Source of the DNA: Candidatus Multivorans sp.
Lineage (GTDB): Bacteria > Acidobacteriota > Thermoanaerobaculia > Multivoradales > Multivoraceae
Length of the DNA: 64,000 nucleotides
Assembly: GCA_965203495.1 (NCBI GenBank)
Contig: CBDBDB010000003.1
Span: 11,297 to 75,296, forward strand
Direction: 5' to 3'
Part shown: positions 19,552 to 50,255 of the stretch, piece after piece
Layout: each line of letters opens with the position of its first letter
How positions within the stretch are numbered: the stretch's first letter is position 1
The notes under the pieces: model-generated
The model's input: the letters and a program-made list of their open reading frames with translations, nothing else
What the model was told of the DNA's origin: nothing
Database searches by the model: none
Translations under genes and position numbers: made by a program

Positions 19552-19759
19552 CGGTTCCCCCCTCAGGGCAGCCGCCTCCTCCGCCACGCACGGAGCTCCT
19601 CCACTGCCCGGCCACGGACATCCGTCAATCGGAGGCCGTGAACACTATAGCGGCACGCCGGGCACGCTGCTCGATCCGGCCTCGATCCGGCGAAGAACCG
19701 TCGCCTTCCATTGCCCATCCCGAGTCGATCGCAGCGCTTGAACGTCATACGATCGCCTC

Positions 19760-24255: not shown

Positions 24256-24761
24256 GACTTGACAGGCTCCTCGACGGTGCTCCACCAGGGCGGCACCGGG
24301 TCGGTACGGAGGCGCCGCGCCCGACGCCGGAGACAGAGAAAGAAGAGAACCAGAGCGGCCTGCATCAGAAAGACCGAGCCGAGGAGAACCCAGGCGCCGG
24401 CGCGGGCGGCGTCGAGCATTCCGCCGCCGCCGCCGAAGAAACCGCCCCCGACGCCCTCGTCGCCCAGACCGCCGTAGCACGCCCTGCAGGCCCAGGCCGC
24501 GGGTTCGGATAAAAGGAGCCAGGCCGCCGCGACAACGGGAATCGTGCGAAACAGCTTCCGCCGCCTGGCCCACTCCTCCTCGGGAGTCGTGATCTTGCGC
24601 CAGAACCAGACGCCATACCCCACGAGCGCCGCGGCGACGACGAACGACAGCAGCGCCCCGATCCGGTACCCGACGCCCTGCGCCAGGCACCAGCCGCCGA
24701 AGAACAGCGCGAGGAGAACGGCGCTGCCGACGAAGACGATGTGGATGACCTTCAGGTTCAT
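24252..24761 (-). CDS. Hypothetical 4-TM membrane protein with CRAC motif, encoded between oxidase subunits IV and II
   Basis: MNLKVIHIVFVGSAVLLALFFGGWCLAQG... with four hydrophobic segments, CRACYGG and a Gly-rich loop. Start/stop overlaps indicate translational coupling with ctaF and ctaC. No recognisable family. Confidence 0.5.
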   Translation of the reverse strand: MNLKVIHIVFVGSAVLLALFFGGWCLAQGVGYRIGALLSFVVAAALVGYGVWFWRKITTPEEEWARRRKLFRTIPVVAAAWLLLSEPAAWACRACYGGLGDEGVGGGFFGGGGGMLDAARAGAWVLLGSVFLMQAALVLFFLCLRRRARRLRTDPVPPWWSTVEEPVKS

Positions 24762-24780
24762 GGCTTGACCGGGGAGACCG

Positions 24781-25110
24781 TCAGTGCGAAACAGGCGCCT
24801 CGAACGCCTCGAACTCGCCGACCTGATCCGCAACCGAGGTCAGGAGCGGCAACGCCATCAGGGCGATGAAGAAGGCAACGGTCAGCGCCAGCGTCCAGTA
24901 GATGATCTTCTTCTCGTCGATCAGGTGCATGAAGAAGCAGGCGACCAGAGAGGCCTTGACGGTGGCGATGAACAGGCCGATGGCGAGGGCGACCGGCACG
25001 GAGACGTCCAGGTAGTACGCGCCAACCGTGAAGCCCGTCCCCACCATCAGGGCGCCGAACACCAGGAAGTAGATGCGGACCTGCCGGTCGATATCGACGT
25101 GTTCACTCAT
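24781..25110 (-). CDS. ctaF: Cytochrome c oxidase subunit IV (prokaryotic aa3/caa3 type)
   Basis: 109 aa with 3 TM helices. YFLVFGALMVGTGFTVGAYYLD...IATVKASLVACFFMHL matches the bacterial COX4 (CtaF/CoxD) family. Confidence 0.75.
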   Translation of the reverse strand: MSEHVDIDRQVRIYFLVFGALMVGTGFTVGAYYLDVSVPVALAIGLFIATVKASLVACFFMHLIDEKKIIYWTLALTVAFFIALMALPLLTSVADQVGEFEAFEAPVSH

Positions 25111-25162
25111 GGGATGCGACTCGCTCCAGGGTAACCGGGGTCAAGGGCGGAGACAACGCCCG

Positions 25163-25762
25163 CTACAGGAGGTAGAAGACGGGAAAGAGGAAGATCCAGA
25201 CCAGGTCGACGAAGTGCCAGAAGAGGCCGGAGTGCTCGACCCGGTCGGTCAGCCACTGCCGGTTCGTGTGGAACAGCTTCGACCCGGGCCCGGCGAAGTA
25301 GGCGTTCCAGGCCATGCCGCCGATCACGTGCAGGGCGTGGAGGCCGGTCATCGCGAAGTAGATGGCGAGGAACGTGCTCGACTCCGGATAGTGATGGTGA
25401 TCGAACTTAGCCATGTACTCGAAGTACTTGATGACCAGGAAGACGCCGCCACAGCCGACGGTCGCCCAGCCGTAGGCCCGAAAGCGGTTCAGCTTCCCGC
25501 GCATCAGCGACGCCCAGGCCATGACCATCGTCAGACTGGAGCCGATCAGCACCACCGTGTTGAGCGTCGCCAGCGGAATGTTCAGTTCCGCTTCGGCCTG
25601 CATTGCCGCCCAGGCGCCGTCCGATCCCAGGCGCAGCATGATGAACGTGGCGAACAGCGCTCCGAACAGCATGACCTCCGAGGTCAGAAACAGCCAGATG
25701 CCGATCTTGCCGTTGTTTAGGCCGGTCTCGGGGTGGGCCTCTACCGTGTAGGGAATGTCCAT
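25163..25762 (-). CDS. ctaE: Cytochrome c oxidase subunit III
   Basis: GIWLFLTSEVMLFGALFATF... and HHHYPESSTFLAIYFAMTGLHALHVIGG are the COX3 family signature. Confidence 0.9.
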   Translation of the reverse strand: MDIPYTVEAHPETGLNNGKIGIWLFLTSEVMLFGALFATFIMLRLGSDGAWAAMQAEAELNIPLATLNTVVLIGSSLTMVMAWASLMRGKLNRFRAYGWATVGCGGVFLVIKYFEYMAKFDHHHYPESSTFLAIYFAMTGLHALHVIGGMAWNAYFAGPGSKLFHTNRQWLTDRVEHSGLFWHFVDLVWIFLFPVFYLL

Positions 25763-25783
25763 GATCCTGGGGTCCTCGAACGG

Positions 25784-27541
25784 TCAGGTTGAAGCCGGTT
25801 CGGCCTGTGGGACGTAGTCCCTGTCGCTGCCCGGAACGCTGTACTCGTACGGTCCGCGCACGACCTCGATCTCCTGGTCGAAGTTCCCGTGCGGCGCCGG
25901 CGACGGCGCCAGCCACTCGACCGTGGTCGAGTTCCAGGGGTTGCGGCCGGCCTTCTCGCCGTTCCGGATGCTCATGAAGAAGTTGACGATGAACGGAATC
26001 TGGGCCAGCGCCAGGCACCAGGCCGAAACCGACATCATGCGGTTCAGTCCAGCCACGTTGCCCGCGAAGTCGTAGGTGACGCCGCCGTCGGCAAGACGCC
26101 GCGAGACGCCGTTCAGGCCCTGAATCAGCATCGGGAAGAAGACGCCGTTCATGAAGACGAAGGAGGGCCAGAAGTGGAGCTTGCCCAGGAACTCGTTCAT
26201 CTTCCGTCCCGTCACCTTGGGGAACCAGTAATAGATGCCGGCGAACAGCGCGAACAGGGTGCCGGGCGCCACGACGTAGTGGAAGTGGCCGATCACGTAG
26301 TACGTGTCGTGGAGCGGGATGTCCGCCGCGGCAAGTCCCAGCGGCAGTCCGGTCAGCCCGCCGATGCCGAACATCGGCAGAAAGCCGAGCGCGAACAGCA
26401 TCGGCGTGTTGTAGCGGATGGAACCGCCCCAGAGCGAGATGAACAGGGCGCTCAGGATGATGACCGAGGGGATGGAGATGATCATCGTCGTCGTCTGGAA
26501 GAAGGTGGACATCACCGAGCCCATGCCCGTGATGAACATGTGGTGCGCCCAGACGATGAAACTCATGAAGCCGAGGAAGATCAGGGAGTACACCATCGAG
26601 CGGTAGCCCCAGAGCGGCTTGCGGGAGTTGTTCGCGATCACCTCGGCGACGATACCCATCGCCGGCAGGATGAGCACGTAGACCTCCGGGTGGGCCAGGA
26701 ACCAGAACAGGTGCTGCCAGAGCAGCGGACTGCCGCCTCCGCTCCGATCAAGCGCCTCGCCGCCGACCACCAGCCCGTCCGGTATGAAGAAGCTGGTGTT
26801 CGCCACGCGATCCATCAACTGCAGCACGCCCGCGGCCTCGAGCGGCGGAAAGGCGAGCAGCAGGAGGAAAGCGGTCACGATCTGCGCCCAGCAGAAGAAC
26901 GGCAGGCGCATCCAGGTCATGCCGGGCGCGCGGAGCTGGATCGCCGTGGTGATGAAGTTGATCGCGCCCAGCAGGGACGACGTGATCAGGAAGATCATCC
27001 CGATCAACCAGGCGGTCTGACCGTTCAGCGCGAGGTCGGCCAGCGGCGAGTACGAGGTCCAGCCGTTGCCCGCGGCGCCGTTCGGCAGGAAGAAGCTGGC
27101 GAACATGGTCACGCCGCCCAGGAACAGGCACCAGTAGCTCAGCATGTTGAGCCGCGGGAAGGCCATGTCCGGGGCGCCGAGCTGAAGCGGCATGACGAAG
27201 TTGCCGAAACCGCCGACCGCCAGCGGCACGACGCCCAGAAACACCATGATCGTCCCGTGCATGGCGCCGAGCTCGTTGTAGAAGTCCGGCAGCATGATGC
27301 CGCCGGGCGCCCGGTTCTCGCCGAAGAGCGAGCCGATCAGGGGAATCGGTTCGCCCGGATAGGCCAGCTGCCAACGCATCACCATCATCAGGGCGAACCC
27401 GAACAGAAGGAACGCGAGGCCGGTGACCGAGTACTGGACGCCGATCACCTTGTGATCGGTCGAGAAGACGCACTTCCTCCAGAAGCTCTGCTCGTGATGA
27501 TGCTCGTCGCGTGCGGGTGACGCGTGAACGGGCTCCGCCAT
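25784..27541 (-). CDS. ctaD: Cytochrome c oxidase subunit I (haem-copper oxidase catalytic subunit)
   Basis: 585 aa with 12+ TM helices. WFFGHPEVY-type blocks (LFWFLAHPEVYVLILPAMGIVAEVI), haem/CuB His ligands and the GMHGTIMVF... motif. Confidence 0.95.
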   Translation of the reverse strand: MAEPVHASPARDEHHHEQSFWRKCVFSTDHKVIGVQYSVTGLAFLLFGFALMMVMRWQLAYPGEPIPLIGSLFGENRAPGGIMLPDFYNELGAMHGTIMVFLGVVPLAVGGFGNFVMPLQLGAPDMAFPRLNMLSYWCLFLGGVTMFASFFLPNGAAGNGWTSYSPLADLALNGQTAWLIGMIFLITSSLLGAINFITTAIQLRAPGMTWMRLPFFCWAQIVTAFLLLLAFPPLEAAGVLQLMDRVANTSFFIPDGLVVGGEALDRSGGGSPLLWQHLFWFLAHPEVYVLILPAMGIVAEVIANNSRKPLWGYRSMVYSLIFLGFMSFIVWAHHMFITGMGSVMSTFFQTTTMIISIPSVIILSALFISLWGGSIRYNTPMLFALGFLPMFGIGGLTGLPLGLAAADIPLHDTYYVIGHFHYVVAPGTLFALFAGIYYWFPKVTGRKMNEFLGKLHFWPSFVFMNGVFFPMLIQGLNGVSRRLADGGVTYDFAGNVAGLNRMMSVSAWCLALAQIPFIVNFFMSIRNGEKAGRNPWNSTTVEWLAPSPAPHGNFDQEIEVVRGPYEYSVPGSDRDYVPQAEPAST

Positions 27542-27583
27542 GGACGCCGCTCCTTTCTCGTTGCTTGGCCGGGGGCGCCTCGG

Positions 27584-28300
27584 CTACTCCGGCTTGAAGA
27601 CGAAGTTCGCCGTCACGACGCCGTCGTCGCTGACCTCGACGGTCTCGGACTGGATCCTGAACCTCTCGAACTCGTGCCGCGCCTCGATCGTGTAAACGCC
27701 GGCCGGCACGTTCTCGATGCGGAAGGAACCGTCGGCGCCCGACACGGCGTAGAACGGATGATCGACGACGGTCACCCAGGAGGTCATCCAGGGATGAACG
27801 TCGCACTTGATCCGGAAGCGCTCCGTCTTCTCGAAGCTGTAGTCGGCCTCGGTCACGCTGGCCGGCATCGCCCGGTTGAACGGGGGGTTGTCCTTGGACA
27901 GCGAGTGGACGTTGTGCAGCAGGCCGTCCGAGTTCTTCACCTTGAACTGCTGGCCGACCTGGACGCCCATGATGCGCGGCGTGTAGATGCAGCCGTTCTG
28001 ATCCATGACCACGGGCTGCGAAGGCGCATCGAAGGACTTCCCTTCCAGGCCCTCGGTGATCGCCAGAAAGACGTTGGCGAAGGCGCCGTCATCCCCGACC
28101 ACGAAGGTCTGGTCGAGGACCGTGCCGCTGTGCTTCGCGGCACACTTGGGATCCGCGTCCATCCTCATTGGACGTTGCGGAGGCGTCCGGCCCTCGTACG
28201 TGACCTTGCCGACAATCGTGCCGCCGAAGGCAACCGGGGAGGAAGCCAGGGCGAGGGCGAGAAGAACGGCACAGACGCGGATCGTCCGCTTCGGAATCAT
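27584..28300 (-). CDS. Exported cupredoxin-like (type-1 copper motif) protein with CarboxypepD_reg-like beta-sandwich flanks (P1)
   Basis: AAGGAG Shine-Dalgarno 8 nt upstream of the ATG at 28300, and a signal peptide (MIPKRTIRVCAVLLALALASSPVAFG). Plastocyanin/pseudoazurin-like block VGQQFKVKNSDGLLHNVHSL ... KCDVHPWM (His ... Cys-x2-His-x2-Met). C-terminal GADGSFRIENVPAGVYTIEA. There is a paralogue at 31901..32692. Confidence 0.7.
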   Translation of the reverse strand: MIPKRTIRVCAVLLALALASSPVAFGGTIVGKVTYEGRTPPQRPMRMDADPKCAAKHSGTVLDQTFVVGDDGAFANVFLAITEGLEGKSFDAPSQPVVMDQNGCIYTPRIMGVQVGQQFKVKNSDGLLHNVHSLSKDNPPFNRAMPASVTEADYSFEKTERFRIKCDVHPWMTSWVTVVDHPFYAVSGADGSFRIENVPAGVYTIEARHEFERFRIQSETVEVSDDGVVTANFVFKPE

Positions 28301-28421
28301 GTCGATGCTCCTTGACTTGGAGTGGTGTCCGGGTTCACGAGGCGCGACCGGCAGAGTAGCAGGGACGACGGCTTGTAACAAGAACGGATCGCTGGCGCGG
28401 CGGCGCGGGTCCGGCGCCTCT

Positions 28422-29657
28422 TCAGACGTTCTCGAACGCCAGGGATTCGACGAGCCGCGGGTCCCGGGACGGCGCCAGCGGGCCGCGGCTCAGCAACCAG
28501 ACCGCGGTCGCCAGGAACAGGCCGCCGACGCCGAGCAGGCAGGTCAGGTCGAGAAGGCTGAACGTCATCTCCCGATGCAGGTTCGGCATGACCAGCCAGA
28601 ACACGTCCCACAGATGCATGGCCAGCATCCAGACGGCGCCGATCAGCAGGAAGGCGCGGTTGCGCTTGATCGTTCGCGGCATGAGGAAGAAGAACGGGAC
28701 GGCGAAGTGGCCGACGGCCAGCAGCACGGTCGCCGCGCGCCAGTTCGCCGGGTTGTTCGCCGTGCCGTGCAGCCGGCTCAGGAACCAGTTGGTCTCCTCC
28801 GGGATGTTCGCGTACCAGATCAGGAAGAACTGGCTGAAGGCGATGTACGCCCAGAACACGGTGAAGGCGAACAGCAGCTTGCCGAGATCGTGGAAATGCT
28901 CGCCGGTGACCACGCCCCGGAAGTGGCCGGACCGCTCGAACGCCAGCGTGAAGACGATGAGCGCGGCAAACGCCGAAACGACCGTGCCGGCGAAGAAGTA
29001 GACGCCGAACATGGTCGAGTACCAGTGCGGCTCCAGCGACATCAGCCAGTCGAAACCGGCAAACGTCAGCGTCACCGCGAGGAGGGCGATCGCAACGGGG
29101 CTGAATCGCGCCATTCGGCGGGAAAGGGCTTCGTCTCCGCTCTCGTCCTGCCGCCGCGACGCGCTGCGGTAGTAGAGCGCCAGCCCGCTCCAGACCACGA
29201 AGTAGATGACCGCCCGAATCCAGAAGCCGGTCTCGTTGAGCCACGGTTCCTTGACCTGCAGCAATCGGTCATGCGCTACCGCGTCGGCGTGGGTCCAGTG
29301 GAACAGGTCGTACATGCCCAGGGCGACGACGGGAACGAACAGGACCGCCAGCGCCGGCGCCGTGCAGGCCAGGTTCTCGGCCAGGCGGCGCACCACGACG
29401 CCCCAGCCCGCCTTCGTCGCGTGGTGAATCAGCACGAAGAACAGACAGCCGAGACCAATGCCGAGAAAGTAGACGACGGCCACGAGCCAGGAGTGGAAGA
29501 ACTGCTTCGCGCTCTCCGCCGATCCCATCGCCAGAACGACCGACGCGGCCGTGAAGACCAGGCCGACCGTTCCCGCGATCAACGGCAGGCGCGACCAGCC
29601 GCCGCCCGGTCGGATGACCAGCTGATCGAGATGAACGGTGCGCGGTCCGTGGGCCAT
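28422..29657 (-). CDS. actF: Alternative complex III subunit ActF-like (second NrfD-family polytopic membrane subunit)
   Basis: About 410 aa with 10 TM helices. Its ATG overlaps the actD stop by 1 nt. It is similar in topology and motifs to actC and is the third gene of the actC-actD-actF series. Confidence 0.8.
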   Translation of the reverse strand: MAHGPRTVHLDQLVIRPGGGWSRLPLIAGTVGLVFTAASVVLAMGSAESAKQFFHSWLVAVVYFLGIGLGCLFFVLIHHATKAGWGVVVRRLAENLACTAPALAVLFVPVVALGMYDLFHWTHADAVAHDRLLQVKEPWLNETGFWIRAVIYFVVWSGLALYYRSASRRQDESGDEALSRRMARFSPVAIALLAVTLTFAGFDWLMSLEPHWYSTMFGVYFFAGTVVSAFAALIVFTLAFERSGHFRGVVTGEHFHDLGKLLFAFTVFWAYIAFSQFFLIWYANIPEETNWFLSRLHGTANNPANWRAATVLLAVGHFAVPFFFLMPRTIKRNRAFLLIGAVWMLAMHLWDVFWLVMPNLHREMTFSLLDLTCLLGVGGLFLATAVWLLSRGPLAPSRDPRLVESLAFENV

Positions 29658-30265
29658 CAGACGGCGCCTCCCGCGTCGCCGTCTTCCGCCGGGTCGTCGA
29701 TCGGCACGTGCTCCACTTCGACCGCGCCAAGTCCGCTCAGGAACTCGGCGGTGGCCCGGTCGTCGTACTTCGCGTCCCAGGCTTCGATCGCGATGAACAG
29801 ACCGTCGTCCGTGACCCGCGCGAAGTTCTTCGACCGGAACAGCGGATGGTGGTAGGTCGGCAGCTTGTTGAAGGCGAACATGCCGAGCACCGCTCCCAGC
29901 GCCGCGCCGAGCACGCCGAGCTCGAAGGTGACCGGCACGAAGGCTGGCCAGGTGAACAGAGGCTTGCCGCTGATGATCAGCGGATAGGCCTGGACGTGAA
30001 CCCAGCTCTGCAGGGCGAAGCCCAGCCCGGCGCCGGAAAGTCCCGTCGCCAGCACGAGGAAGGGCAACCTGGACGGCTTCAGCCCCATCGCCTTCTCGAG
30101 ACCGTGCACCGGGAACGGCGTCAGCGCGTCCCACTTCGAGTAGCCGGCGTCACGGACCGCCTCGCACGCTCGATAGAGCGCCTTGGCCGTCTCGAAGCGA
30201 GCCAGGACGCCGTAGTGGCGGTAGCCCGCCGACGCTTCCGGCACGTCCAGGGTCATCAGGCCCAT
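29657..30265 (-). CDS. actD: Alternative complex III subunit ActD-like (DUF3341 membrane protein)
   Basis: 202 aa. Cytoplasmic N-terminal part (YGVLARFETAKALYRACEAVRDAGYSKWDALTPFPVHGLEKAMG) followed by 2 TM helices. It sits between two NrfD-like genes with 1-nt spacing. Confidence 0.75.
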   Translation of the reverse strand: MGLMTLDVPEASAGYRHYGVLARFETAKALYRACEAVRDAGYSKWDALTPFPVHGLEKAMGLKPSRLPFLVLATGLSGAGLGFALQSWVHVQAYPLIISGKPLFTWPAFVPVTFELGVLGAALGAVLGMFAFNKLPTYHHPLFRSKNFARVTDDGLFIAIEAWDAKYDDRATAEFLSGLGAVEVEHVPIDDPAEDGDAGGAV

Positions 30266-30266
30266 G

Positions 30267-31727
30267 TCACGCGCCTCCCGCGCCGGCCGTCGCCGGCCGC
30301 GCCGCGGCCGTCGCTCCGGCCCCGGCGGCCGCGACCCGCACGAGTTCCTCGCCCTGGTGCGGATCGGCCTCCGGCAGCACGGTCTTGACCTCCGCCGTCG
30401 CCACCAGCGGCAGGAAGCGGGCGAACAGGCAGAACATCGTGAAGAACAGGCCGAAGCTGCCGATCAGCGAGGCGAAGTCCCAGAAGGTCGCCTGGTAGTA
30501 GTCCCAGCTCGCCGGCAGGAAGTCCCGGTGCAGCGACGACGCGACGATGACGAAACGCTCGAACCACATGCCGATGTTGATCAGGATCGAGGAGACGAAC
30601 AGCCAGCCGATGTGGTTGCGCATCTTCTTGAACCAGAACAGTTGCGGCGTGAGCACGTTGCAGCTGACCATGATCCAGTAGGCCCAGGCGTAGGGGCCGA
30701 GGGCCCGGTTGGCGAAGGCGAACTGCTCGTAGGGGTTGCCGCTGTACCAGGCGATGAACATCTCGATGCCGTAGGCGTAGCCGACCATGCACCCCGTCAG
30801 CAGCATGATCTTGGCCATGTTCTCGAGATGGCGCATCGTGATGATGTCCTCCATCCTGAACAGGACCCGGCAGATCAGCATCAGGGTCACGACCATGGCG
30901 AAGCCGGAGAAGATGGCGCCGGCGACGAAGTAGGGCGGGAAGATCGTCGTGTGCCAGCCCGGCAGCTGGGCGGTCGCGAAGTCCATCGACACGACGGAGT
31001 GGACGGAGAGGACGAGGGGAGTCGCCAGTCCGGCCAGCATCAGGTAGGCCCGCTCGTAGTGCAGCCAGTTCCGGTGAGAACCGCGCCAGCCGAGAGCGAA
31101 GACGCCGTAGACGATCCGCCGGATCCGCGTCCGGGCGCGGTCGCGAATCGTCGCGAGGTCCGGAATCAGGCCGACGTACCAGAACATCAGGGACACCGTG
31201 CCGTAGATCGACACCGCGAACACGTCCCAGATCAACGGACTGCGGAAGTTCGGCCACATGTCCATCTGGTTCGGCAGCGGGAACATCCAGTAGGCGACCC
31301 ACACGCGGCCGACGTGGATGCCGGGAAACACCAGGGCGCACATGACCGCGAAGATCGTCATCGCCTCCGCGGCGCGGTTGATCGAGGTGCGCCACTTCTG
31401 CCGGAACAGGAAGAGGATCGCGGAGATCAACGTGCCGGCGTGGCCGATGCCGACCCAGAAGACGAAGTTGACGATCGCGAAGCCCCAGTTGACCGGATTG
31501 TTCAGGCCCCAGATGCCGGTGCCCTCCCAGAACAGCCAGGCGATCGAAACGCCGAACAGGCCCAGCAGCGCCAGCGACGGCAGGAAGAAGAACCACCAGC
31601 CGATCGGCGTCCCGCGCTCGACCGGCGCCGCGACCGCTTCCGTCAGGGAGCGGAAGTCGTAGCCGCCTACGATCAGCGGCGCGCGGCCGGCGACCGGTTC
31701 CTGGGTGTTGTCCTGACTCTGTGCCAT
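30267..31727 (-). CDS. actC: Alternative complex III subunit ActC-like (NrfD/PsrC-family quinol-interacting membrane subunit)
   Basis: 486 aa. [56 protein letters not shown] matches the ActC/NrfD signature block. Confidence 0.85.
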
Positions 31728-36279: not shown

Positions 36280-37228
<949 letters not shown>

Positions 37229-37233
<5 letters not shown>

Positions 37234-37783
37234 CCTCGCGCTCGAGCAGTTCGACCGTCTCCTTGCCGTCGACGGCGGCAAAGGAGACCTTGATCACCTC
37301 GGTGTCGGTCGTCTGCACCTGTTCGCCGACGCAGTCCGCGTGGATCGGCAATTCCCGGTGGCCCCGGTCGATCAGCACCGCCAGACGAATCGCCCGCGGA
37401 CGGCCGTAGTCCATGATCAGGGCGTCCATCGCCGCCCGGATCGTGCGACCGCTGTACAGAACGTCGTCGCAGAGCACGACGATCCGGTCGTCGATCGGCG
37501 CCGGCATCGCGCTCTCCTTGACCACGGGCTGCGGCGCGATGGTCGAGAGATCGTCCCGGTAGAGCGTGATGTCGAGCACTCCGACCGGCACGGCGACGCC
37601 TTCGGTGCGCTGGATCTCGGCGGCGATGAACTCGGCCAGCGGTACGCCGCGCGTGCGCACGCCGACCAGCATCAACGAGTCCGTGCCTCCCGCGCGCTCG
37701 ACCACCTCCGCGGCCATCCGCCGCAGCGTCCGCGCCATCTGCGGCGCATCGAACAGCACCCTCCTGACCGTCAGCGCACTCAC
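37229..37783 (-). CDS. pyrR: Bifunctional pyrimidine operon regulator / uracil phosphoribosyltransferase PyrR
   Basis: 184 aa. PRTase fold with [21 protein letters not shown] (PRPP-binding loop). It is the first gene of the pyrR-pyrB-pyrC series. Confidence 0.9.
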
Positions 37784-37927
37784 CGTCGCGGCAGCGTATC
37801 AGCGCCCCGCCGGCGACGCGACATGTTGTGGATTCGTGCCCGCCGCGGCACAACCGCTTGTGACTCATGCACGAACCCTGCTATGTTCCTCGAACTTCGA
37901 CCAGCGCGATTCGCAGCCGCCCGCACG

Positions 37928-40900
37928 ATGCTCAAACTCGAGAGTCTGGAAGTCAACGGCTTCAAGACGTTCGTCGACCCGGTAACGAGCCGGTTCGCCC
38001 GCGGCATCACCGCGATCGTCGGGCCGAACGGCTGCGGCAAGAGCAACCTTGCCGAAGCCATCACCTGGGTGCTCGGCGAGCAGAGCGCCAAGTCGCTCCG
38101 CGGCAGTTCCATGGAGGAGGTCATCTTCAACGGAAGCGGCCAGCGCAAGCCCCTGGGGATGGCCGAGGTCAGCCTCACCTTCCTCGCCGATGGCGGCGTC
38201 GAGAACGCCGAGGACGGCCGCATCACGATCGGGCGGCGGATCTTCCGCGGCGGCGAGGGACAGTACCGGTTGAACGACCGGGCGACTCGGCTGAAGGACA
38301 TCCGCGACCTCCTGATGGACACGGGTCTGGGCATTCGCGCCTACTCCGTGATCGAGCAGGGGCGAATCGGGATGATTCTCTCCGGCAAGCCTCAGGAACG
38401 CCGCAAGCTGATCGAGGAGGCCGCCGGGATCACTCGCTACAAGAACCGCAAGCGGCTCGCCGGCCTGAAGCTCGAGGACGCGACCGCCGATCTGCTCCGA
38501 CTCGACGACATCATCTCCGAAGTCGAGCGCAGTCTCCGATCCCTCAAGCGGCAGGCGACGGCCGCCCGGCGCCACCGCGAACGCCGACAGGCCTACCGTG
38601 AACTGCTCGACGCCGTGCTGCGGGCGCGTTGGGCGAGACGTCGAGGCGAACTCGAGGAGATCGGATCGGCTCTGGAACGGGAAGCCGACCGCGAAGCGGC
38701 GCTTCTGGCCGACATCGGCCGCGGCGCCGCGGAACTCGCGGAATGCCGTCAGGCCATCGACGCGCGCACGGAAGAGGCCGTTCGCTCGCACGAACGCCAG
38801 GCCACCCTGCTGGCGACGATCGAGGGGCGCCAGGAACTGATCAAGGGCGGCCGCGCAACCCGGGCGGAGATCGCCGAACGGCTCGAGGCCGGCGGCCGCG
38901 GCGCGGAGACGCGGCGGCGCGAACTGTCGACGGCCGAAGAGGCGCTCGCGGTCCTTGCGGGACGCCGGCGGATGTTCCTCTCGGAGCGCGAAGAAGCGCT
39001 GGCGAAGGTCCACGAGGACCGCCGGCGGATCGACGAGGCCGACGGCGCGATCGAACGCGCCCGCGGGCGACATCGCGACCTGCTGGAAGAACAGGCGGCG
39101 GCGGGCGCCGCGATCGACGAACTGCGCGGCCGCCTGGTCGCCGAGCGCATCGCCAACGAGAAGGCGGTCGATCGCCGCGACCGCGCCGAGAAGACGCTGG
39201 AACGCAGCCAGGAGGCGCTCCGCTCGATCGACGACGACGTCCGGGGCGTCGGCGCCAGGGTGGAGACGCTGGACGTCGCCCTGACCTCCGAGACCCGAGC
39301 CGCCCGGCGGGCGGCGGAGGCCCTGGAAGCGAGCCGGAACCGGTGGGAGACCGCCAGGGCCGAACTGGAATCGCGTCGTCAGGAGCTGGTCGAAGCCCAG
39401 AAGCGCGCGGCCGTTCTCCGGGAGCTCGGTCAGCGAGACGAAGAGCTGCGAGCCGGGATCCGCGACGCATTGCTCGAGTTGGAGCTGCCGGCGCCCCGTT
39501 TTCTCGGCGACGAAGTCAACGTGCCGGCGGGCTGGGAAGACAGCCTGGACGTCTTTCTCGGTCCGCTGCGCCATGCGGTCCTCGTCCCCGGCGACGAAGA
39601 CGCGGTGGCCATTGCCCGGGCCCTTGCCGGCTTCGACCGCCAGGTCACGCTGCTCCGGCCGGCCGGCCCCGGGCCGCCCGCTCCGGACCGCGCGGCGAGC
39701 GGGAAACTCGACGACCCGGAGATCGTCGGCGACGCGTGGACCGCGCTGGGCCTCCCCGCGGAACTGCGTGGATCGCTCCGCCCCGGCTGGCTCGCGACAA
39801 GCCCCGAGGCGGCGGAGCGCTTGGCGGCCGACAACCCGGGCGTCGCCTTTCTGTGCCGCGAGCGGCTCTGGATCGAGGCCGGCCGGGTCACGGTGCGCGG
39901 CGCGGCCGCGGCGCCCGGCGCCTTGGGCCGCCAGCGTGAACTCGACGACCTCGATCGACGCTCCGAGGAACTCGAGGAGCGCTGCACGACACTGGGTCGC
40001 GAAATCGATGCCGCCGCCGAAAGCGGCCGCGACGCCGCGCTGGAAGGTCGGAGGATCGAGCAGGCCGCGGCCGAACTGCGGGAACGACTGGCCGTCGCCA
40101 AGGCCCGGCTCCAGGATCTGGACGAACGGCGGGCGGCGCAGGCCGATGAGAGCGCGGCGGCCGAGACCGAGCGCGACGAACTGATCCGCGGCATCGAGGA
40201 GACGGAAAGCCGGCAGGCCCGGATCCGGGCCGACATGGAGGCCCGGGAAACGGTTCACCGCGGTCTGGAACAGGCAGTGCGAGAGGCGTCCGCCGCCGTC
40301 GAACGGGCTCGGGAAGAGCGCGAGGAGCGCGTCACGGCGGGCGCCGGACGCCAGGGCCAGCTCGAACTGATCGAGGAGCGCTCCGCCACCGAGCGGAACG
40401 AGACAGAGAGGCTGGAGGGTCGCATCGCGAGTCTGCGCGAGGCCGACGGAGAGTGGCTGGCCGAGCAGGAACGGTTGCGCGGCCGCCTCGTCGAACTCGA
40501 GGAGGCGTCCAACCAGGCAAGGCGGGAACTCGACGAGGCCCTGGCCGAGCGGACGAGCGCCGGAGACGAAGCGACCGGCGCCCAGGAGGCTCTCGCGACC
40601 GAGCGCGACCGCGGCCGCGAGCTGGACGGCCGCATGCGCGATCTCGGCGCCCAGCGCGAGGAACTGCGTGAGCGGATGGAGGAACTGCGGGTGCGCCAGG
40701 CGGGTCTGCGCCAGGACGCGGAACACCTGGAGCGGGAGTACCGCGAGGAGTTCCGGCGCGAACTGACCGCGCGGGAAGCGCCGGCGGCGCCTGTCGACGA
40801 AGCCCCCGACCTCGAGACGATGACCGAGGAGCTCGAGCGGCGCCGCGCCCTGCTGGAGCGCATGGGACCGGTCAACGTCCTGGCGGCCGACGAGTACGAC

Positions 40901-41488
40901 GAGCAGCAGGAGCGCCACGCGTTCCTGACCGGACAGCGCGCCGACGTGGCGTCCTCGGTCGAGAGCCTGAAGCGCACGATCCGCGACATCGACAGGACCT
41001 CCTCCGAGCGCTTCGTCTCCACCTTCAGGGAGGTCAACGAGAGCTTCGGGCGGACGTTCACGGAGCTGTTCCGGGGCGGCGAAGCCGAGATGCGCCTGAT
41101 GGACGAGGACGATCCGCTGGACTGCGGCATCGAGATCACCGCCCGGCCGCCGGGCAAGCGGGCCCAGAACATCATGCTGCTCTCGGGCGGGGAGAAGGCG
41201 CTGGCGGCGATCGCCCTGCTGTTCGCCCTGTTCCAGACCAAGCCCTCCCCGTTCTGCATCCTCGACGAGGTCGACGCGCCGCTCGACGACGCGAACATCC
41301 TGCGATTCGTCGACATGCTGGAGCGCATGTCGAAGGAAACCCAGTTTCTCGTCATCACTCACAACAAGCTGACGATGCAGGTTGCGAGCACGCTCTACGG
41401 GGTCACGATGGAGGAACGCGGAGTCTCGAAGATCGTCGGCGTCGACGTCGACGAAATGCACCCCGAACGCCAGTTGGCCACTGCCTGA
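37928..41488 (+). CDS. smc: Chromosome segregation protein SMC
   Basis: N-terminal Walker A (MLKLESLEVNGFKTF...IVGPNGCGKSN), a long coiled-coil region, and C-terminal signature/Walker B (LLSGGEKALAAIALLFALFQTKPSPFCILDEVDAPLDD). Confidence 0.9.
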   Translation: MLKLESLEVNGFKTFVDPVTSRFARGITAIVGPNGCGKSNLAEAITWVLGEQSAKSLRGSSMEEVIFNGSGQRKPLGMAEVSLTFLADGGVENAEDGRITIGRRIFRGGEGQYRLNDRATRLKDIRDLLMDTGLGIRAYSVIEQGRIGMILSGKPQERRKLIEEAAGITRYKNRKRLAGLKLEDATADLLRLDDIISEVERSLRSLKRQATAARRHRERRQAYRELLDAVLRARWARRRGELEEIGSALEREADREAALLADIGRGAAELAECRQAIDARTEEAVRSHERQATLLATIEGRQELIKGGRATRAEIAERLEAGGRGAETRRRELSTAEEALAVLAGRRRMFLSEREEALAKVHEDRRRIDEADGAIERARGRHRDLLEEQAAAGAAIDELRGRLVAERIANEKAVDRRDRAEKTLERSQEALRSIDDDVRGVGARVETLDVALTSETRAARRAAEALEASRNRWETARAELESRRQELVEAQKRAAVLRELGQRDEELRAGIRDALLELELPAPRFLGDEVNVPAGWEDSLDVFLGPLRHAVLVPGDEDAVAIARALAGFDRQVTLLRPAGPGPPAPDRAASGKLDDPEIVGDAWTALGLPAELRGSLRPGWLATSPEAAERLAADNPGVAFLCRERLWIEAGRVTVRGAAAAPGALGRQRELDDLDRRSEELEERCTTLGREIDAAAESGRDAALEGRRIEQAAAELRERLAVAKARLQDLDERRAAQADESAAAETERDELIRGIEETESRQARIRADMEARETVHRGLEQAVREASAAVERAREEREERVTAGAGRQGQLELIEERSATERNETERLEGRIASLREADGEWLAEQERLRGRLVELEEASNQARRELDEALAERTSAGDEATGAQEALATERDRGRELDGRMRDLGAQREELRERMEELRVRQAGLRQDAEHLEREYREEFRRELTAREAPAAPVDEAPDLETMTEELERRRALLERMGPVNVLAADEYDEQQERHAFLTGQRADVASSVESLKRTIRDIDRTSSERFVSTFREVNESFGRTFTELFRGGEAEMRLMDEDDPLDCGIEITARPPGKRAQNIMLLSGGEKALAAIALLFALFQTKPSPFCILDEVDAPLDDANILRFVDMLERMSKETQFLVITHNKLTMQVASTLYGVTMEERGVSKIVGVDVDEMHPERQLATA

Positions 41489-41507: not shown

Positions 41508-42803
41508 ATGAAGCGCTCGGTCCTCTTCTGTCTCGTCCTTCCGCTCGCGGTCGGCGCCGCGGACGCCTCGGACCGCGACGCACCCACCTTCCACGCCGAC
41601 GTGCTGCCCGTGCTTCAGACCCACTGTCAGGATTGTCACCGCCCCGCCGGAGCGAACTACGGCGGGATGCGGGCGCCGATGGCCCTGACCACCTATGCCG
41701 AGACGCGGCCCTGGGCCCGGTCCATCGCACGGACGGTGGCGGCCCGGGAGATGCCGCCCTGGGACGCCCACCCCCGACACGACGGGACGTTCGCGAACGA
41801 GCGGGTGCTCGACCCGGCGGAGATCGAGATCCTGGTCAACTGGGCGCGCGGCGGCGCCGCCCCCGGCGATGCCGGCGACGCTCCCCCGCCGCGGGAGTTT
41901 CCGAGCGCCGGCGGCTGGGTGGTGGGCGAGCCCGACCTCGTGGTGACCATGCCGGCGCCCTACTTCGTCGAGGACGAAGTCGACGACCTCTACGCCGCCT
42001 TCTCGACCGTCCTCACCGAGGAGGATCTGCCCGAGGATCGTTGGGTCGTCGCCTTCCAGTGCAAGCCGGACAGCGAGATCATCCATCACTTCAACCTTCA
42101 CCTGCTGGCGCCGGACGAAAACGGCCAATTGCCGCCGGCGCCGGCGTTCCCGAACCAGGATCAGCTCGCCCCGGCGCCGGAGAACGCGGGCGCCTACATG
42201 GGCGGCGTCTCGTCCGGCAGCGACGCCAACCGCTACCCGGAGGGCTACGGGTTTCTTCTCAGGAAGGGCTCGCGGGTGACGTTCGACATCCACTACCACA
42301 AGGAAGCCGGCGCCGGCACGGGCCTGTGGGACCAGTCGTCGATCGGTTTCGTCTTCGCCGACGAACCGGTGACCCGTCCGCTCGGCTCCGGTCTGCGCCC
42401 GATCATGAACTTCACGTTCGCGATTCCGCCGAATGACGGCAACTTCCAGGTGGGTCCCTACTCCACCGTCGCCCGACGGGACACCGAGATCATCGCGCTC
42501 ATGCCGCACATGCACATGCGCGGCAAGGCCGCGCGCTTCGAGGCGTTCTACCCCGACGGCACGAGCGAAGTGCTGCTCGAGGTGCCCGAGTTCGACTTCT
42601 CCTGGCAGACCGTCTACTACTACGACAAGCTGAAGCGCATCCCCGCCGGCTCCCGGATCGAGTACACGGCCTGGTACGACAACTCGCCCGAGAAGGCGGC
42701 CCGTTACGGCTTCGACTCGAATCGCACGGTCCGCTTCGGCCAGCCCTCCACCGACGAGATGATGATGGGCTTCATGATGAGCGCCGCGGCGCCGGAGAAC
42801 TAG
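41508..42803 (+). CDS. Exported fusion protein: N-terminal PSCyt1-type mono-haem cytochrome c domain + copper type-II ascorbate-dependent monooxygenase-like (PHM/DBH-like) two-domain region
   Basis: Signal peptide; FHADVLPVLQTHCQDCHRPAG (CxxCH). CuH-like HH...H ligands (EIIHHFNLH ... DIHYH) and CuM-like HxH...M ligands (PHMHMRGKA ... STDEMMMGF), with spacing as in peptidylglycine alpha-hydroxylating monooxygenase. Confidence 0.6.
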   Translation: MKRSVLFCLVLPLAVGAADASDRDAPTFHADVLPVLQTHCQDCHRPAGANYGGMRAPMALTTYAETRPWARSIARTVAAREMPPWDAHPRHDGTFANERVLDPAEIEILVNWARGGAAPGDAGDAPPPREFPSAGGWVVGEPDLVVTMPAPYFVEDEVDDLYAAFSTVLTEEDLPEDRWVVAFQCKPDSEIIHHFNLHLLAPDENGQLPPAPAFPNQDQLAPAPENAGAYMGGVSSGSDANRYPEGYGFLLRKGSRVTFDIHYHKEAGAGTGLWDQSSIGFVFADEPVTRPLGSGLRPIMNFTFAIPPNDGNFQVGPYSTVARRDTEIIALMPHMHMRGKAARFEAFYPDGTSEVLLEVPEFDFSWQTVYYYDKLKRIPAGSRIEYTAWYDNSPEKAARYGFDSNRTVRFGQPSTDEMMMGFMMSAAAPEN

Positions 42804-42843: not shown

Positions 42844-43167
42844 CTACGTCCGCGCAAGCCGGTGGGCGGCGCCCAGAGAACCGGCGGCGATCAACAGACC
42901 CAGCAGCTCGCGGCTGCGCTCGATGTGCATCCGGCTGGCCGACATCGGGGCCCACAGGTCGCTGGTCGGACGGTGCAGAAGCCAGTCGATGAACCCCGGC
43001 AGCGTCAGCGCGACGCCCGCCGCCGTGACCGTGACGAGCGCCAGAAAGACGACGCGGTGAAGCGGCCGGTAGGCGGCGATCGTGCAGGCGCAGGCGACCG
43101 ACGCGTAGTAGGTCACCCAGATCAGCGGGTCCGGGTCGTTGATCTGCAGCAGGGCGAAGACCAGCAT
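42844..43167 (-). CDS. TMEM220-like small membrane protein
   Basis: MLVFALLQINDPDPLIWVTYY and ...SRELLGLLIAAGS resemble the TMEM220 family blocks (ALVQVNDPDAELWVVVY; GRELSGLVIITAW). Confidence 0.5.
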   Translation of the reverse strand: MLVFALLQINDPDPLIWVTYYASVACACTIAAYRPLHRVVFLALVTVTAAGVALTLPGFIDWLLHRPTSDLWAPMSASRMHIERSRELLGLLIAAGSLGAAHRLART

Positions 43168-43202
43168 CGCCAAGCCCAGCAACAGGGACGGGAACCGAGG
43201 AC

Positions 43203-44234
43203 TCAACTCCACTCCAGACCGTCGAGGTCGACGCAGACTTCCTCGGCGAGCGAAACGCTCAGTTCGACGATCAGGCGCGTGAAGGGCGAACGAGCCAGCC
43301 ACGCGCGGTCCTGGTCTGCGGCCGCCGACCAGATCTCGAGCGTCGACGAACCGTGTTCGCGGGACTCGACCGTGACGACCGCCTCGGGTCGCCAGCCGGG
43401 GTCGGGATCCCCGGGCCGATAGGCCACGGCCGAGAGGCGGAAGAACTTGTCGACCCAGGCGGCCAGGTCGGCGTCGGCGTCGTCCGAGGTCTCGACGGTC
43501 CAGTACGGCTCGGCGGGGCCGGCGCCGAGGCGCTGGCGAATCCTCAGCGGCGCCTCCGTTCCGGACCCCGGGCGGCGCAGGGTCATCGCCTCCACTTCGG
43601 GCCGCGACGCGGCGAACAGCCGCCGCTCCATCAGCAGCTCGGCGCCGCCGCCCAGACCTGAAGCGACCTCGGAAGGCAACACCAGAACGGTTCCGCCGGG
43701 GGCGGCGCCAGCGCCCGGCCCGGTCTCGCGTCGCGCGTAGCGGTCGGCGCCGCCGAAGGGCCGGCCGCCGAGTCGAAAGCCGATGTCCCGGCCGCGCACG
43801 GTCAACGTCAGGAACTCGGCCGCCGAGTCGCCGTCGGCAAGCCCGAGTTCCGCGAGCTTGGCGCCGTCCACGTTCTCGAGCGCCCTGACCGCCCGCAGCG
43901 GCGCAAGTCCTCGCCACAGCGTCTCCACCTGCCGGCCGCCGACGAACACCGTGTCCGCTCCTTCGCGGCCGGCGAACCAACGCCCCAGGTCGTCTTCCCG
44001 AGCCTCGATCTCGATCCTCTGTTCGCCACGCTCGTACGCCACGCGCTCGACGTCTTCTTCGGCCGCCTGAACAACGACCGCGCCTGTCGCGGCGCCGGCG
44101 GCCGCGCCCTCGAACGGCCGTTCGAAGGACAGCCAGGCGCCGGCCAGCGCGAGGACGAGCAAGGCGAGGTGGCGCCAGGTCGATCGCCAGGGCGACTTCG
44201 GGAGCGGAACCAGGGTCGGCGCCGGAGGAGTCAC
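43203..44234 (-). CDS. DUF4340-like protein (partner of the GldG-type ABC auxiliary component)
   Basis: N-terminal TM anchor. Its position immediately downstream of a GldG-like gene and its length/composition are typical of DUF4340. Confidence 0.5.
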   Translation of the reverse strand: MTPPAPTLVPLPKSPWRSTWRHLALLVLALAGAWLSFERPFEGAAAGAATGAVVVQAAEEDVERVAYERGEQRIEIEAREDDLGRWFAGREGADTVFVGGRQVETLWRGLAPLRAVRALENVDGAKLAELGLADGDSAAEFLTLTVRGRDIGFRLGGRPFGGADRYARRETGPGAGAAPGGTVLVLPSEVASGLGGGAELLMERRLFAASRPEVEAMTLRRPGSGTEAPLRIRQRLGAGPAEPYWTVETSDDADADLAAWVDKFFRLSAVAYRPGDPDPGWRPEAVVTVESREHGSSTLEIWSAAADQDRAWLARSPFTRLIVELSVSLAEEVCVDLDGLEWS

Positions 44235-49304: not shown

Positions 49305-50255
49305 ATGACACAAGACCCCCATCGCAGACCCCGCGTCCTCCCGTTCCTGACCGCTCTCCTGCTGGCCGGACCGGCATTGACCCAGCCTCCGCCGCCGCCA
49401 TCCCAGGCGCCGCGAGCCGACGCCGCCGAGATCGAGGCGTTCCTCGGCGAGTGGGTGCTCGAGGTGCTCACCCGGCAAGGCTCGCTCAACAGCCTGATCA
49501 CGTTCGTCGACGACGACGGCAAGGCGAGCGCCGACTTCTACCTGGCGCGTGTGGCCGACGTCGTGGTCGAGAACGTCAGCCGCACGGAAACGGGCGTCCG
49601 ACTCGCGTGGAACCAGGACTTCGGCGGTCAACTCGTGCCGGTCGAGATGGACCTCGCGCGCGCCGGCGACGGTCTGGTCGGAAAGCTGGAGACGGGGTTC
49701 TTCAACGCCGACATCAAGGGCATGACGAAGGAGGCGGCCGAAGCGGCCGGAATCGTCGTCCGGCGCCAACCGGTCGACGACCGGGACGATCTGGGCATGT
49801 CCCGGGTCGAGGTCGGCGGCCAGGCGATCCGGCTCCGCTTCGATCGCCTGCCGGCGGCGGGCGCCGACTACGAACGACTCGGCAACCTGGGGGACGGCGA
49901 GGTCCTGGGCCCCATCTTCGGCAAGCCGTTCAAGTTCTGGACCGACGCCGACCTCGCGTTCGAGGACGTCGAAGTGGCCGCCCACAATCACGGTCCGACG
50001 TATCCAGGCGTCTACAGCCTCTGGCTGAAGCGCGAGGGCGACGGCTGGAATCTCGTGTTCAATCACCTGGCCGACGTCTGGGGCACGATGCACATGGCCG
50101 AACACGACGCCGGCGAGACGCCGCTGACGTTCCGCGCCCTCGCCGAACCGGCGGAGCGCACGGAGGGCGTGCTCGAGACGGACGGCGCCGGCGGCACGCT
50201 GACGATCCGCTGGGGAACGATGGAGTGGTCCGCGCCCTTCCGGGTCGTCGAGTGA
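49305..50255 (+). CDS. Exported DUF2911-family protein
   Basis: Signal peptide. C-terminal block FKFWTDADLAFEDVEVAAHNHGPTYPGVYSLWLKREGDGWNLVFNHLADVWGT is typical of DUF2911. Confidence 0.6.
   Translation: MTQDPHRRPRVLPFLTALLLAGPALTQPPPPPSQAPRADAAEIEAFLGEWVLEVLTRQGSLNSLITFVDDDGKASADFYLARVADVVVENVSRTETGVRLAWNQDFGGQLVPVEMDLARAGDGLVGKLETGFFNADIKGMTKEAAEAAGIVVRRQPVDDRDDLGMSRVEVGGQAIRLRFDRLPAAGADYERLGNLGDGEVLGPIFGKPFKFWTDADLAFEDVEVAAHNHGPTYPGVYSLWLKREGDGWNLVFNHLADVWGTMHMAEHDAGETPLTFRALAEPAERTEGVLETDGAGGTLTIRWGTMEWSAPFRVVE

Follow-up and report, generated by a model that had tools for sequence, protein, structure and literature searches.

A c-type haem domain joined to a homologue of the two-copper monooxygenases PHM and DBH in Candidatus Multivorans, with metal ligands conserved across a large bacterial family

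The stretch of DNA analysed here (hereafter the window) comprises 64,000 nucleotides of contig CBDBDB010000003.1 (positions 11,297 to 75,296, forward strand) of the GenBank assembly GCA_965203495.1, which belongs to Candidatus Multivorans sp. of the phylum Acidobacteriota. At positions 41508..42803 of its plus strand the window contains a complete open reading frame (ORF) of 431 codons and a stop, with an ATG start and a TGA stop codon, whose product is composed of a signal peptide, a c-type haem domain and two lobes homologous to those of peptidylglycine alpha-hydroxylating monooxygenase (PHM) and dopamine beta-hydroxylase (DBH). The GC content at its third codon positions is 0.91, as is typical of real genes in this window of approximately 70% GC. 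The start codon follows the stop codon of an smc gene after a gap of 19 nucleotides and is preceded, at a distance of 8 nucleotides, by a weak ribosome-binding site (GGTAGG). The deduced N-terminus, MKRSVLFCLVLPLAVGAADA (41508..41567), reads directly as a Sec-type signal peptide without a lipobox, with cleavage expected around residues 18-21, and a hydrophobic N-terminus is common to all homologues in the alignment of the close family (A1, consisting of 33 sequences down to 53% identity).

The signal peptide is followed by a c-type cytochrome domain (approximately residues 25-125; 41580..41882), delimited by Pfam scans and by a predicted structure of three helices. Its CQDCH motif (residues 40-44; 41625..41639), the sole CxxCH of the protein and identified as the haem attachment site by its conservation, provides the cysteines C40 and C43 and the proximal ligand H44, and a conserved MPPW motif (41751..41762) contains M82, the putative distal ligand. 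Next comes the PHM-like N lobe, or CuH domain (approximately residues 136-290; 41913..42377), defined by the Foldseek matches to DBH and PHM, by the hhalign alignment with a PHM profile and by the matches of relatives to the Pfam model Cu2_monooxygen. It harbours H193-H194 in IIHHFNLH (42084..42089), corresponding to the CuH ligands H107-H108 of PHM, and H262-Y263 in DIHYH (42291..42296), corresponding to H172-Y173, of which the histidine is the third CuH ligand. The PHM-like C lobe, or CuM domain (approximately residues 296-427; 42393..42788), is covered by the same Foldseek and hhalign results and, over residues 304-424, by the Pfam model Cu2_monoox_C. It harbours H334-M-H336 in PHMHMRGK (42507..42515), corresponding to the CuM ligands H242-x-H244, and D416-E417-M418 in STDEMMMGF (42753..42761), corresponding to D312-E313-M314 with the methionine ligand of CuM. 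All four correspondences come from profile alignment, and the ligands concerned are conserved among the representatives of the family.

The distances between the ligands are near those of rat PHM, namely 68 residues between H194 and H262 (64 between H108 and H172 in rat PHM), 72 between H262 and H334 (70 between H172 and H242) and 82 between H336 and M418 (70 between H244 and M314). An earlier reading of this DNA, made from the sequence alone (the sequence-only reading), had described the ORF, the signal peptide, a single CxxCH and the copper motifs quoted above, with the two ligand sets at PHM-type spacing and the methionine about 80 residues after the HxH pair; all these elements are present, at coordinates that were verified, and the spacing agrees with that description. 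A loose HH..H..HxH..M pattern arose in 116 of 200,000 composition-preserving shuffles of the protein, and the same pattern with an upstream CxxCH in none of them, so that the occurrence of both in one protein is not a matter of chance.

Structure prediction and profile comparison revealed the origin of the two lobes. The AlphaFold2 model of the whole protein has a mean predicted local distance difference test score (pLDDT) of 79.5 and a predicted template modelling score (pTM) of 0.71. Its top Foldseek match in the PDB is human DBH (4zel_A, E = 6e-12), ahead of some 30 PHM entries (E from 6.6e-11 to 5.3e-08), all DBH and PHM matches having a probability of 1.00 and template modelling scores of approximately 0.5-0.6 when normalised to the length of PHM. 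The predicted fold, which the sequence-only reading had singled out as the refuting test of its PHM/DBH-like scaffold, is thus the two-lobe jelly-roll pair of these enzymes. From E = 1.3e-05 onwards the list consists of generic jelly-roll or viral capsid proteins only, as expected because the PHM fold is a double jelly-roll (PMC8812541).

The profile of the bacterial core, built from 144 diverse sequences (number of effective sequences, Neff, 5.2), was compared by hhalign with a PHM family profile of 25 sequences, the rat PHM core sequence having been checked against PDB chain 4e4z_A. The two profiles align over 261-266 columns, covering both lobes, with a probability of 98.9% and E = 1.9e-17 in local mode and 99.5% and 7.5e-22 in global mode. 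All six ligands are in register (H193/H194 with H107/H108, H262 with H172, H334/H336 with H242/H244, and M418 with M314), as are the local motifs, xHY with QVH172Y, PHMH with H242-T-H244 and DEM with DEM314; this local register is also found in weaker alignments. With the low-diversity alignment A1 (Neff 2.1), the hhalign comparison was only marginal, both for rat PHM (E = 1.2e-3) and for the PHM profile (E = 3.6e-4), and the more diverse core profile was needed. Among the relatives, Cu2_monoox_C (PF03712) matches 23 of 33 close and 21 of 77 distant sequences (best E = 2.5e-08) and Cu2_monooxygen (PF01082) matches two (best E = 2.7e-07), and some of them pass the Pfam gathering scores, for example P0152 with 25.0 bits and P0127 with 24.3 bits. 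We regard it as nearly certain that the protein is a true homologue of PHM and DBH with intact metal sites.

The family to which the protein belongs is large. A word-indexed search returned 1,719 relatives, nearly all unnamed or called "mono/diheme cytochrome c family protein", and the only names found for members across sources are "hypothetical protein", "mono/diheme cytochrome c family protein" and "peroxiredoxin". When 1.84 billion cluster representatives (clusters at 50% identity) were searched exhaustively with a profile, the result was 17,093 matches at E <= 1e-3, 10,782 at E <= 1e-10 and 3,066 clusters at E <= 1e-30, the last count being the safer measure of family size because the weakest matches may cover the cytochrome domain only. 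Closest to the query, at 84-91% identity, are orthologues in metagenome-assembled genomes (MAGs) labelled Thermoanaerobaculia, Holophagales or "Candidatus Multivorans" (Acidobacteriota), and orthologues at 53-62% identity occur in Sumerlaeota, Hydrogenedentota, Nitrospirales, Rhodothermaeota and Gammaproteobacteria. Several genomes with a close orthologue also carry at least one paralogue of the same architecture at 44-48% identity (loci L071-L085; the sequence OZ244782.1, for instance, holds both L032 and L071), which suggests several substrate specificities per organism; the window itself contains no paralogue of the gene.

In alignment A1 the residues C40, C43, H44, M82-P-P-W, H193, H194, H262, H334 and H336 are invariant, and M418 is conserved in at least 90% of the sequences. 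The same residues were followed in 150 divergent representatives, differing from one another by more than 50%, with counts referring to those sequences that cover the position in question. The CxxCH motif is kept in 141 of 141 and M82 in 146 of 146; for CuH, H193 is kept in 138 of 150, H194 in 147 of 150 and H262 in 149 of 150; for CuM, H334 and H336 are kept in 142 of 144 each and M418 in 140 of 141. Conservation of the ligands among homologues, on which the sequence-only reading had made its interpretation depend, therefore amounts to 92-100% in this divergent set. Of the second-shell residues, Y263 is kept in 144 of 150 and E417 in 140 of 141, and position 260, an aspartate in the query, is glutamine in most representatives (78 of 150), matching Q170 in the QVHY motif of PHM. 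To judge from the sequences, the haem motif and both copper ligand sets are under strong purifying selection. The cysteine C185, invariant in the close clade, had been considered as an extra CuH ligand and was rejected, as it is not family-wide (cysteine in 16 of 150 representatives, mostly valine, isoleucine or phenylalanine in the others).

No curated NCBIfam model matches the protein, and no description of a bacterial protein with haem c and PHM-like domains was found in the literature searched, a coverage that leaves out most subscription journals. Together with the uninformative names, this bears out, within that coverage, the statement of the sequence-only reading that the architecture is uncharacterised, and the family appears to be a large bacterial branch that has never been studied, although it is probably already visible in part in databases through weak Pfam and InterPro matches. 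A survey of jelly-roll proteins published in 2022 still treats PHM as the eukaryotic member of its clan (PMC8812541).

The haem domain is recognised by generic cytochrome c models only (Cytochrom_C, Cytochrome_CBB3 and Haem_bd). Cytochrome_CBB3 matches 25 of the 33 family members (best E = 6.1e-06) and Cytochrom_C 21 of 33; on the isolated domain of the query (residues 20-133) the latter scores 21.7 bits, just over its cut-off of 21.3 bits, and on the whole protein 19.0 bits. The sequence-only reading had assigned the domain to the PSCyt1 type with one CxxCH. The c-type haem domain with its single CxxCH is there, but the assignment to PSCyt1 finds no support: the Pfam model PSCyt1 (Planctomycete cytochrome c, PF07635) matches neither the whole protein nor the isolated domain at E <= 10, and the likeness to PSCyt1 exists at the level of a motif only (F..DV.PIL...C..CH...MPPW). 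A PDB profile search with the haem domain gave sub-significant matches to the haem domain of hydrazine synthase alpha (E = 0.084) and to a cytochrome c-550-like protein (E = 0.86). The sequence features of class I-type c cytochromes are present in the form of the invariant CxxCH and M82 and of a signal-peptide-like N-terminus. M82 is taken as the probable sixth (distal) haem ligand because it is the only universally conserved methionine downstream of CxxCH; M54 and M58, near the haem motif, are not conserved in the wider family.

In textbooks, PHM (the catalytic core of PAM), DBH and tyramine beta-monooxygenase figure as enzymes of eukaryotes. In all three, the three-histidine site CuH serves as an electron store and relay, the His2Met site CuM binds O2 and abstracts the substrate hydrogen, and turnover consumes two electrons, one held on each copper. 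Compared with PHM (PDB 1phm, 1opm, 1sdw and 3mll), the query shares the two-lobe jelly-roll fold with homology over both lobes, identical ligand sets, HH...H for CuH and HxH...M for CuM, in the same order and with nearly the same spacing, and the local motifs xHY and S/T-D-E-M, and most members of its family keep the equivalent of Q170. There are also differences: identity to PHM is only approximately 15-18%, PHM resides in eukaryotic secretory granules whereas the query is bacterial and periplasmic, and PHM relies on ascorbate whereas the query carries a covalent haem c domain in front of its core. The carboxylate anchor R240 of PHM is replaced by M332 at a position that varies between M, L, F and T, and the substrate anchor N316 by a hydrophobic residue in the query family. 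The sole feature of the PHM substrate site to be kept is that of Y318, where 105 of the 150 representatives have an aromatic residue (F, Y or W). The invariant disulfide cysteine columns of PHM have no counterpart, the mature query having one cysteine (C185) outside CxxCH, and the query lacks the PAL partner of PHM. Since the carboxylate-binding residues are missing, we conclude that the substrate is not a glycine-extended peptide and the protein not a peptide-amidating enzyme.

DBH (4zel), the best structural match, has the same copper ligands as the query, as do MOXD1, MOXD2 and tyramine beta-monooxygenase. Like the query, DBH has an extra N-terminal domain before the catalytic core; this is a DOMON domain, of a superfamily that includes haem-b-binding cytochrome domains, and it is unrelated to the class I-like c-type cytochrome with covalent haem found here. 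DBH also has a dimerisation domain, which the query lacks. A mono-haem c domain in cis to a periplasmic copper centre is known from cytochrome-c-fused NirK and from subunit II of caa3 oxidase, which may serve as analogues of the query: there, electrons of the respiratory cytochrome c pool enter the copper site through the haem. The copper domains of these proteins, however, are cupredoxins (with type 1 and type 2 copper or CuA) that perform reductive chemistry and are not homologous to the copper part of the query.

On these grounds we propose that the protein would act as a periplasmic redox enzyme of three modules, a mono-haem c domain and the two beta-sandwich lobes of a non-coupled two-copper centre. 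Haem would be covalently attached at C40 and C43, with H44 and probably M82 as axial ligands, CuH would be held by H193, H194 and H262, and CuM by H334, H336 and M418. A one-electron periplasmic carrier reduced by the respiratory chain, either a soluble cytochrome c or a cupredoxin, would reduce the haem, which would pass electrons one at a time to CuH and so take the role that ascorbate has in the eukaryotic enzymes; from CuH they would be relayed to CuM, where Cu(I) would bind O2; one oxygen atom would then enter a C-H bond of the substrate, which would be positioned between the two lobes. The fused haem c domain and the periplasmic location argue for a reductant other than ascorbate, and it is reasonable to suppose, by the analogies given, that the respiratory chain feeds the enzyme. 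That haem and copper occupy their sites, in which direction electrons flow, which donor supplies them and that the reaction is a monooxygenation are likewise put forward by analogy with the characterised systems. The part of this proposal that we consider probable is that the haem is a built-in electron entry to a copper site activating O2 or peroxide; the mechanism as a whole, a haem-fed two-copper monooxygenase, is favoured somewhat less firmly, and for hydroxylation of a C-H bond in an organic substrate the chances appear evenly balanced.

The respiratory equipment encoded in the window is consistent with such an electron supply. An aa3-type cytochrome c oxidase (COX2 at 23452-24690, COX3 at 25163-25762 and COX1 at 25784-27541) and an Alternative Complex III (an ActF-like gene at about 28422-29600, ActD at 29657-30265 and NrfD/ActC at 30267-31727) form a cluster on the minus strand (23452-31727), 10-18 kb upstream of the haem-copper gene. 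The host therefore respires O2 and should possess periplasmic carriers at the potential of cytochrome c. Between the oxidase and the Alternative Complex III genes lies a gene for an exported protein of 265 amino acids (27584-28381, minus strand) with a Cys-x2-His-x2-Met motif (KCDVHPWM), an upstream LLHNVH and a CarboxypepD_reg-like domain. By its cupredoxin-like motif, read by eye, it may be a blue-copper carrier and a candidate donor for periplasmic redox enzymes.

Several results weigh against the reading of the protein as a haem-fed two-copper monooxygenase. The AlphaFold2 model of the isolated haem domain (pLDDT 74.5, three helices) has no significant fold match, an outcome attributed to disorder of the haem loop in the apo model. 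Neither PHM nor DBH was reached when the PDB was searched by sequence, be it with the single protein or with the profile of 33 sequences; all that was returned was noise at E > 0.2. The check by Cu2_monooxygen and Cu2_monoox_C that the sequence-only reading had suggested turned out mixed: the C-lobe model matches the query over residues 304-424 with E = 0.0029 and some relatives pass, but its 17.5 bits are below the cut-off of 23 bits and the N-lobe model does not match the query. Because the query falls below the Pfam gathering scores, it is best described as a remote homologue outside the curated family boundary. Furthermore, clustering of all neighbouring ORFs in 86 loci revealed neither a conserved partner in an operon nor a gene related to a substrate or encoding a dedicated electron donor, no neighbour being present in more than 6 of the 29 mid-distance loci. 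Finally, many relatives are linked to redoxins: an N-terminal AhpC/TSA or Redoxin domain directly precedes the haem domain in 38 of the 77 longer representatives scanned, and in the cultured bacteroidotan Chondrinema litorale WSW3-B12 the gene of a redoxin (WP_284688969.1) ends 9 nucleotides upstream of that of a family member (WP_284688968.1) on the same strand. This link indicates that some part of the family is involved in thiol or peroxide chemistry, and a simple relay from the respiratory chain over haem to copper does not account for it.

The alternative that survives best, though we consider it unlikely, keeps the scaffold and the metals and restricts the chemistry to small inorganic molecules, making the protein a cytochrome-c-dependent oxidase, peroxidase or reductase without hydroxylation of organic C-H bonds; the reactions could be reduction of O2 to H2O2 or H2O, removal of peroxide, or reduction of nitrite or related anions at CuM. 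It would account for the lack of a conserved substrate-related neighbour and of the substrate-anchoring residues of PHM, for the frequent fusion or adjacency of peroxiredoxin-type AhpC/TSA domains in relatives and for a cytochrome c peroxidase gene nearby in two loci, and, according to the titles of PDB entries 3mlk, 3mib, 3mll and 3mlj, the CuM site of PHM accepts nitrite, azide, CO and peroxide as ligands. However, the inter-lobe cleft is conserved, as is the aromatic residue at the position of Y318 in 105 of 150 representatives, and CBM48, alpha/beta-hydrolase, GDSL lipase and lipocalin modules in relatives suggest organic substrates. To our knowledge, moreover, a His2Met CuM facing a His3 CuH across a cleft is a C-H hydroxylating centre in every characterised member.

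A second alternative, which we consider improbable, takes the redoxin link at face value: electrons would come from a periplasmic thiol relay, from a DsbD/CcdA-type protein to a redoxin, or the redoxin would handle a peroxide co-substrate or by-product, with the haem as an internal relay or a sensor. Its support lies in the longer relatives. Of the top 150 representatives, P0044 had already been found in the word-indexed search; roughly half of the 149 new ones exceed 480 amino acids, and the redoxin domains fused to the haem domain in 38 of the 77 scanned share conserved cysteine motifs. Mostly, these fused domains (P0160-P0268) have a single cysteine in T-x-C-P-[LIV]-[AS]..Y and a second one in a distal G-C-x-I-G-R, and the CPxC pair is kept in only about 4 of 35; the active-site pattern therefore looks unusual, with peroxidatic reactions or a disulfide relay as possible chemistries. 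Such redoxin-cytochrome c-PHM-like fusions (for example P0162 and P0175), like the gene pair of C. litorale, have the haem c domain and the two-copper core with all ligands in common with the query and differ from it in the extra AhpC/TSA-type redoxin domain or gene and sometimes in a C-terminal CBM48, hydrolase, EF-hand or DUF2911 domain, the query having the minimal stand-alone architecture.

The C. litorale pair is located on plasmid NZ_CP111057.1 (L086, 6279-8332). WP_284688968.1, annotated as "hypothetical protein", is 27.5% identical to the query (E = 7e-31) with every ligand intact, and WP_284688969.1, annotated as "redoxin domain-containing protein", has CPLA and GC motifs like those of the fused redoxin domains. 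A cytochrome c peroxidase gene lies 2.3 kb from the pair on the other strand. The redoxin link is thus a real feature of the family, but it is absent from the clade of the query: neither the query nor any member of that clade has a redoxin domain, and no redoxin gene occurs within 5 kb of the query. In addition, thiols are unusual as electron donors to c-type haems, and the window encodes a complete aerobic chain at the level of cytochrome c. Because so many relatives are fused or adjacent to a thiol-redoxin domain, the family may have a second electron route, of which this gene shows no sign.

Far less probable is a non-catalytic role, in which the protein would have retained the PHM fold but would only bind or traffic copper in the periplasm or shuttle electrons. 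Sites rich in histidine and methionine also occur in periplasmic Cu(I) chaperones, and no substrate or partner genes were found; against this, the conservation of six ligands and the second shell (Q/D260, Y263 and E417) over thousands of clusters, with multiple paralogues per genome, is typical of enzymes, and it is hard to see what purpose a covalently fused haem would serve in a chaperone. A genuine bacterial peptidylglycine alpha-hydroxylating, that is, peptide-amidating, enzyme can be considered effectively excluded in spite of the shared fold and metal ligands, since R240 is replaced by the variable hydrophobic M332 and N316 by a hydrophobic residue, the disulfide cysteines of PHM are absent, no PAL-like lyase or precursor peptide gene occurs near the query, and DBH is structurally at least as close as PHM.

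As regards the substrate of the proposed monooxygenase, the modules fused in the 77 representatives scanned also include EF-hands, a PQQ-type propeller, BlaR1-M56 and DUF2911, besides the CBM48, alpha/beta-hydrolase, GDSL lipase and lipocalin domains mentioned above, and these accessory domains hint that the substrates are organic, more likely glycans, esters or lipids than peptides. DUF2911 provides a link to the window itself, which encodes a DUF2911 protein at 49305-50255 (plus strand), 6.5 kb downstream of the haem-copper gene. Its C-terminal domain is homologous to the C-terminal extensions of P0129, P0131 and P0134 (blastp E = 1e-17, 4.5e-15 and 5e-05), which are among the highest-scoring representatives, so that DUF2911 and the haem-copper core are connected by domain fusion; no informative solved relative of DUF2911 was found.

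In its widest form, the interpretation advanced here would be that of a large and so far overlooked class of haem-copper monooxygenases of the PHM/DBH type in the bacterial periplasm, which would draw not on ascorbate but on the respiratory cytochrome c pool or, where a thiol-redoxin module is fused, on that module, performing extracytoplasmic hydroxylation in many environmental phyla and perhaps representing the prokaryotic stock of the eukaryotic hormone-processing enzymes. We hold this view tentatively, at slightly less than an even chance. What is new relative to the PHM/DBH family is a bacterial branch of thousands of sequence clusters with intact ligands and a built-in haem, outside the curated Pfam boundaries. 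If the interpretation is correct, it would widen the biological range of non-coupled two-copper oxygen activation, and the haem would offer an optical handle with which to trigger and follow electron delivery to CuH and the much-debated transfer from CuH to CuM. It would also mean that abundant uncultured lineages (Acidobacteriota, Hydrogenedentota, Sumerlaeota and Nitrospirales) carry out hydroxylations of a new kind in the periplasm, and would bear on how peptide amidation and catecholamine synthesis arose in evolution, noradrenaline being the product of DBH and PHM acting in the production of animal peptide hormones. The cultured carrier C. litorale WSW3-B12 makes the question experimentally approachable.

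The genes flanking the haem-copper gene are not functionally suggestive. Upstream lies smc (37220-41488, plus strand), the ORF of which is over-extended at its 5' end, SMC-like sequence starting around MLKLESLEVNGFKTF, approximately 230 codons in. Downstream, the opposite strand encodes a TMEM220-family protein (42844-43260, minus strand), a DUF4340-like ORF, a GldG-like ABC auxiliary protein, an ABC-2 permease and an ABC ATPase. In a relative with 84% identity (L001/L002), smc, TMEM220 and the haem-copper gene are again neighbours, in rearranged order and orientation. Across the 86 loci, conservation of neighbours is confined to the clade of at least 80% identity, where it reflects shared ancestry and synteny. 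Alpha/beta-hydrolase neighbours lie 3-5 kb off on the other strand, mostly in related taxa. Across phyla, a single neighbour was found to recur, namely a stand-alone CheY-like receiver gene located immediately upstream on the same strand in 6 of the 29 mid-distance loci (L003, 5557-5931; L053, 7494-7901; L054, 7413-7874; L060, 3869-4306; L061, 338-784; and L065, 7419-7826), which belong to Hydrogenedentota, Nitrospirales, Rhodothermaeota and one further MAG; it is absent from the window. Elsewhere in the window, ARAGORN called a tRNA-SeC at 19375-19466 (minus strand), which is probably a false positive because it falls within the GC-rich coding sequence for the ammonium transporter Amt (18139-19587, likewise on the minus strand).

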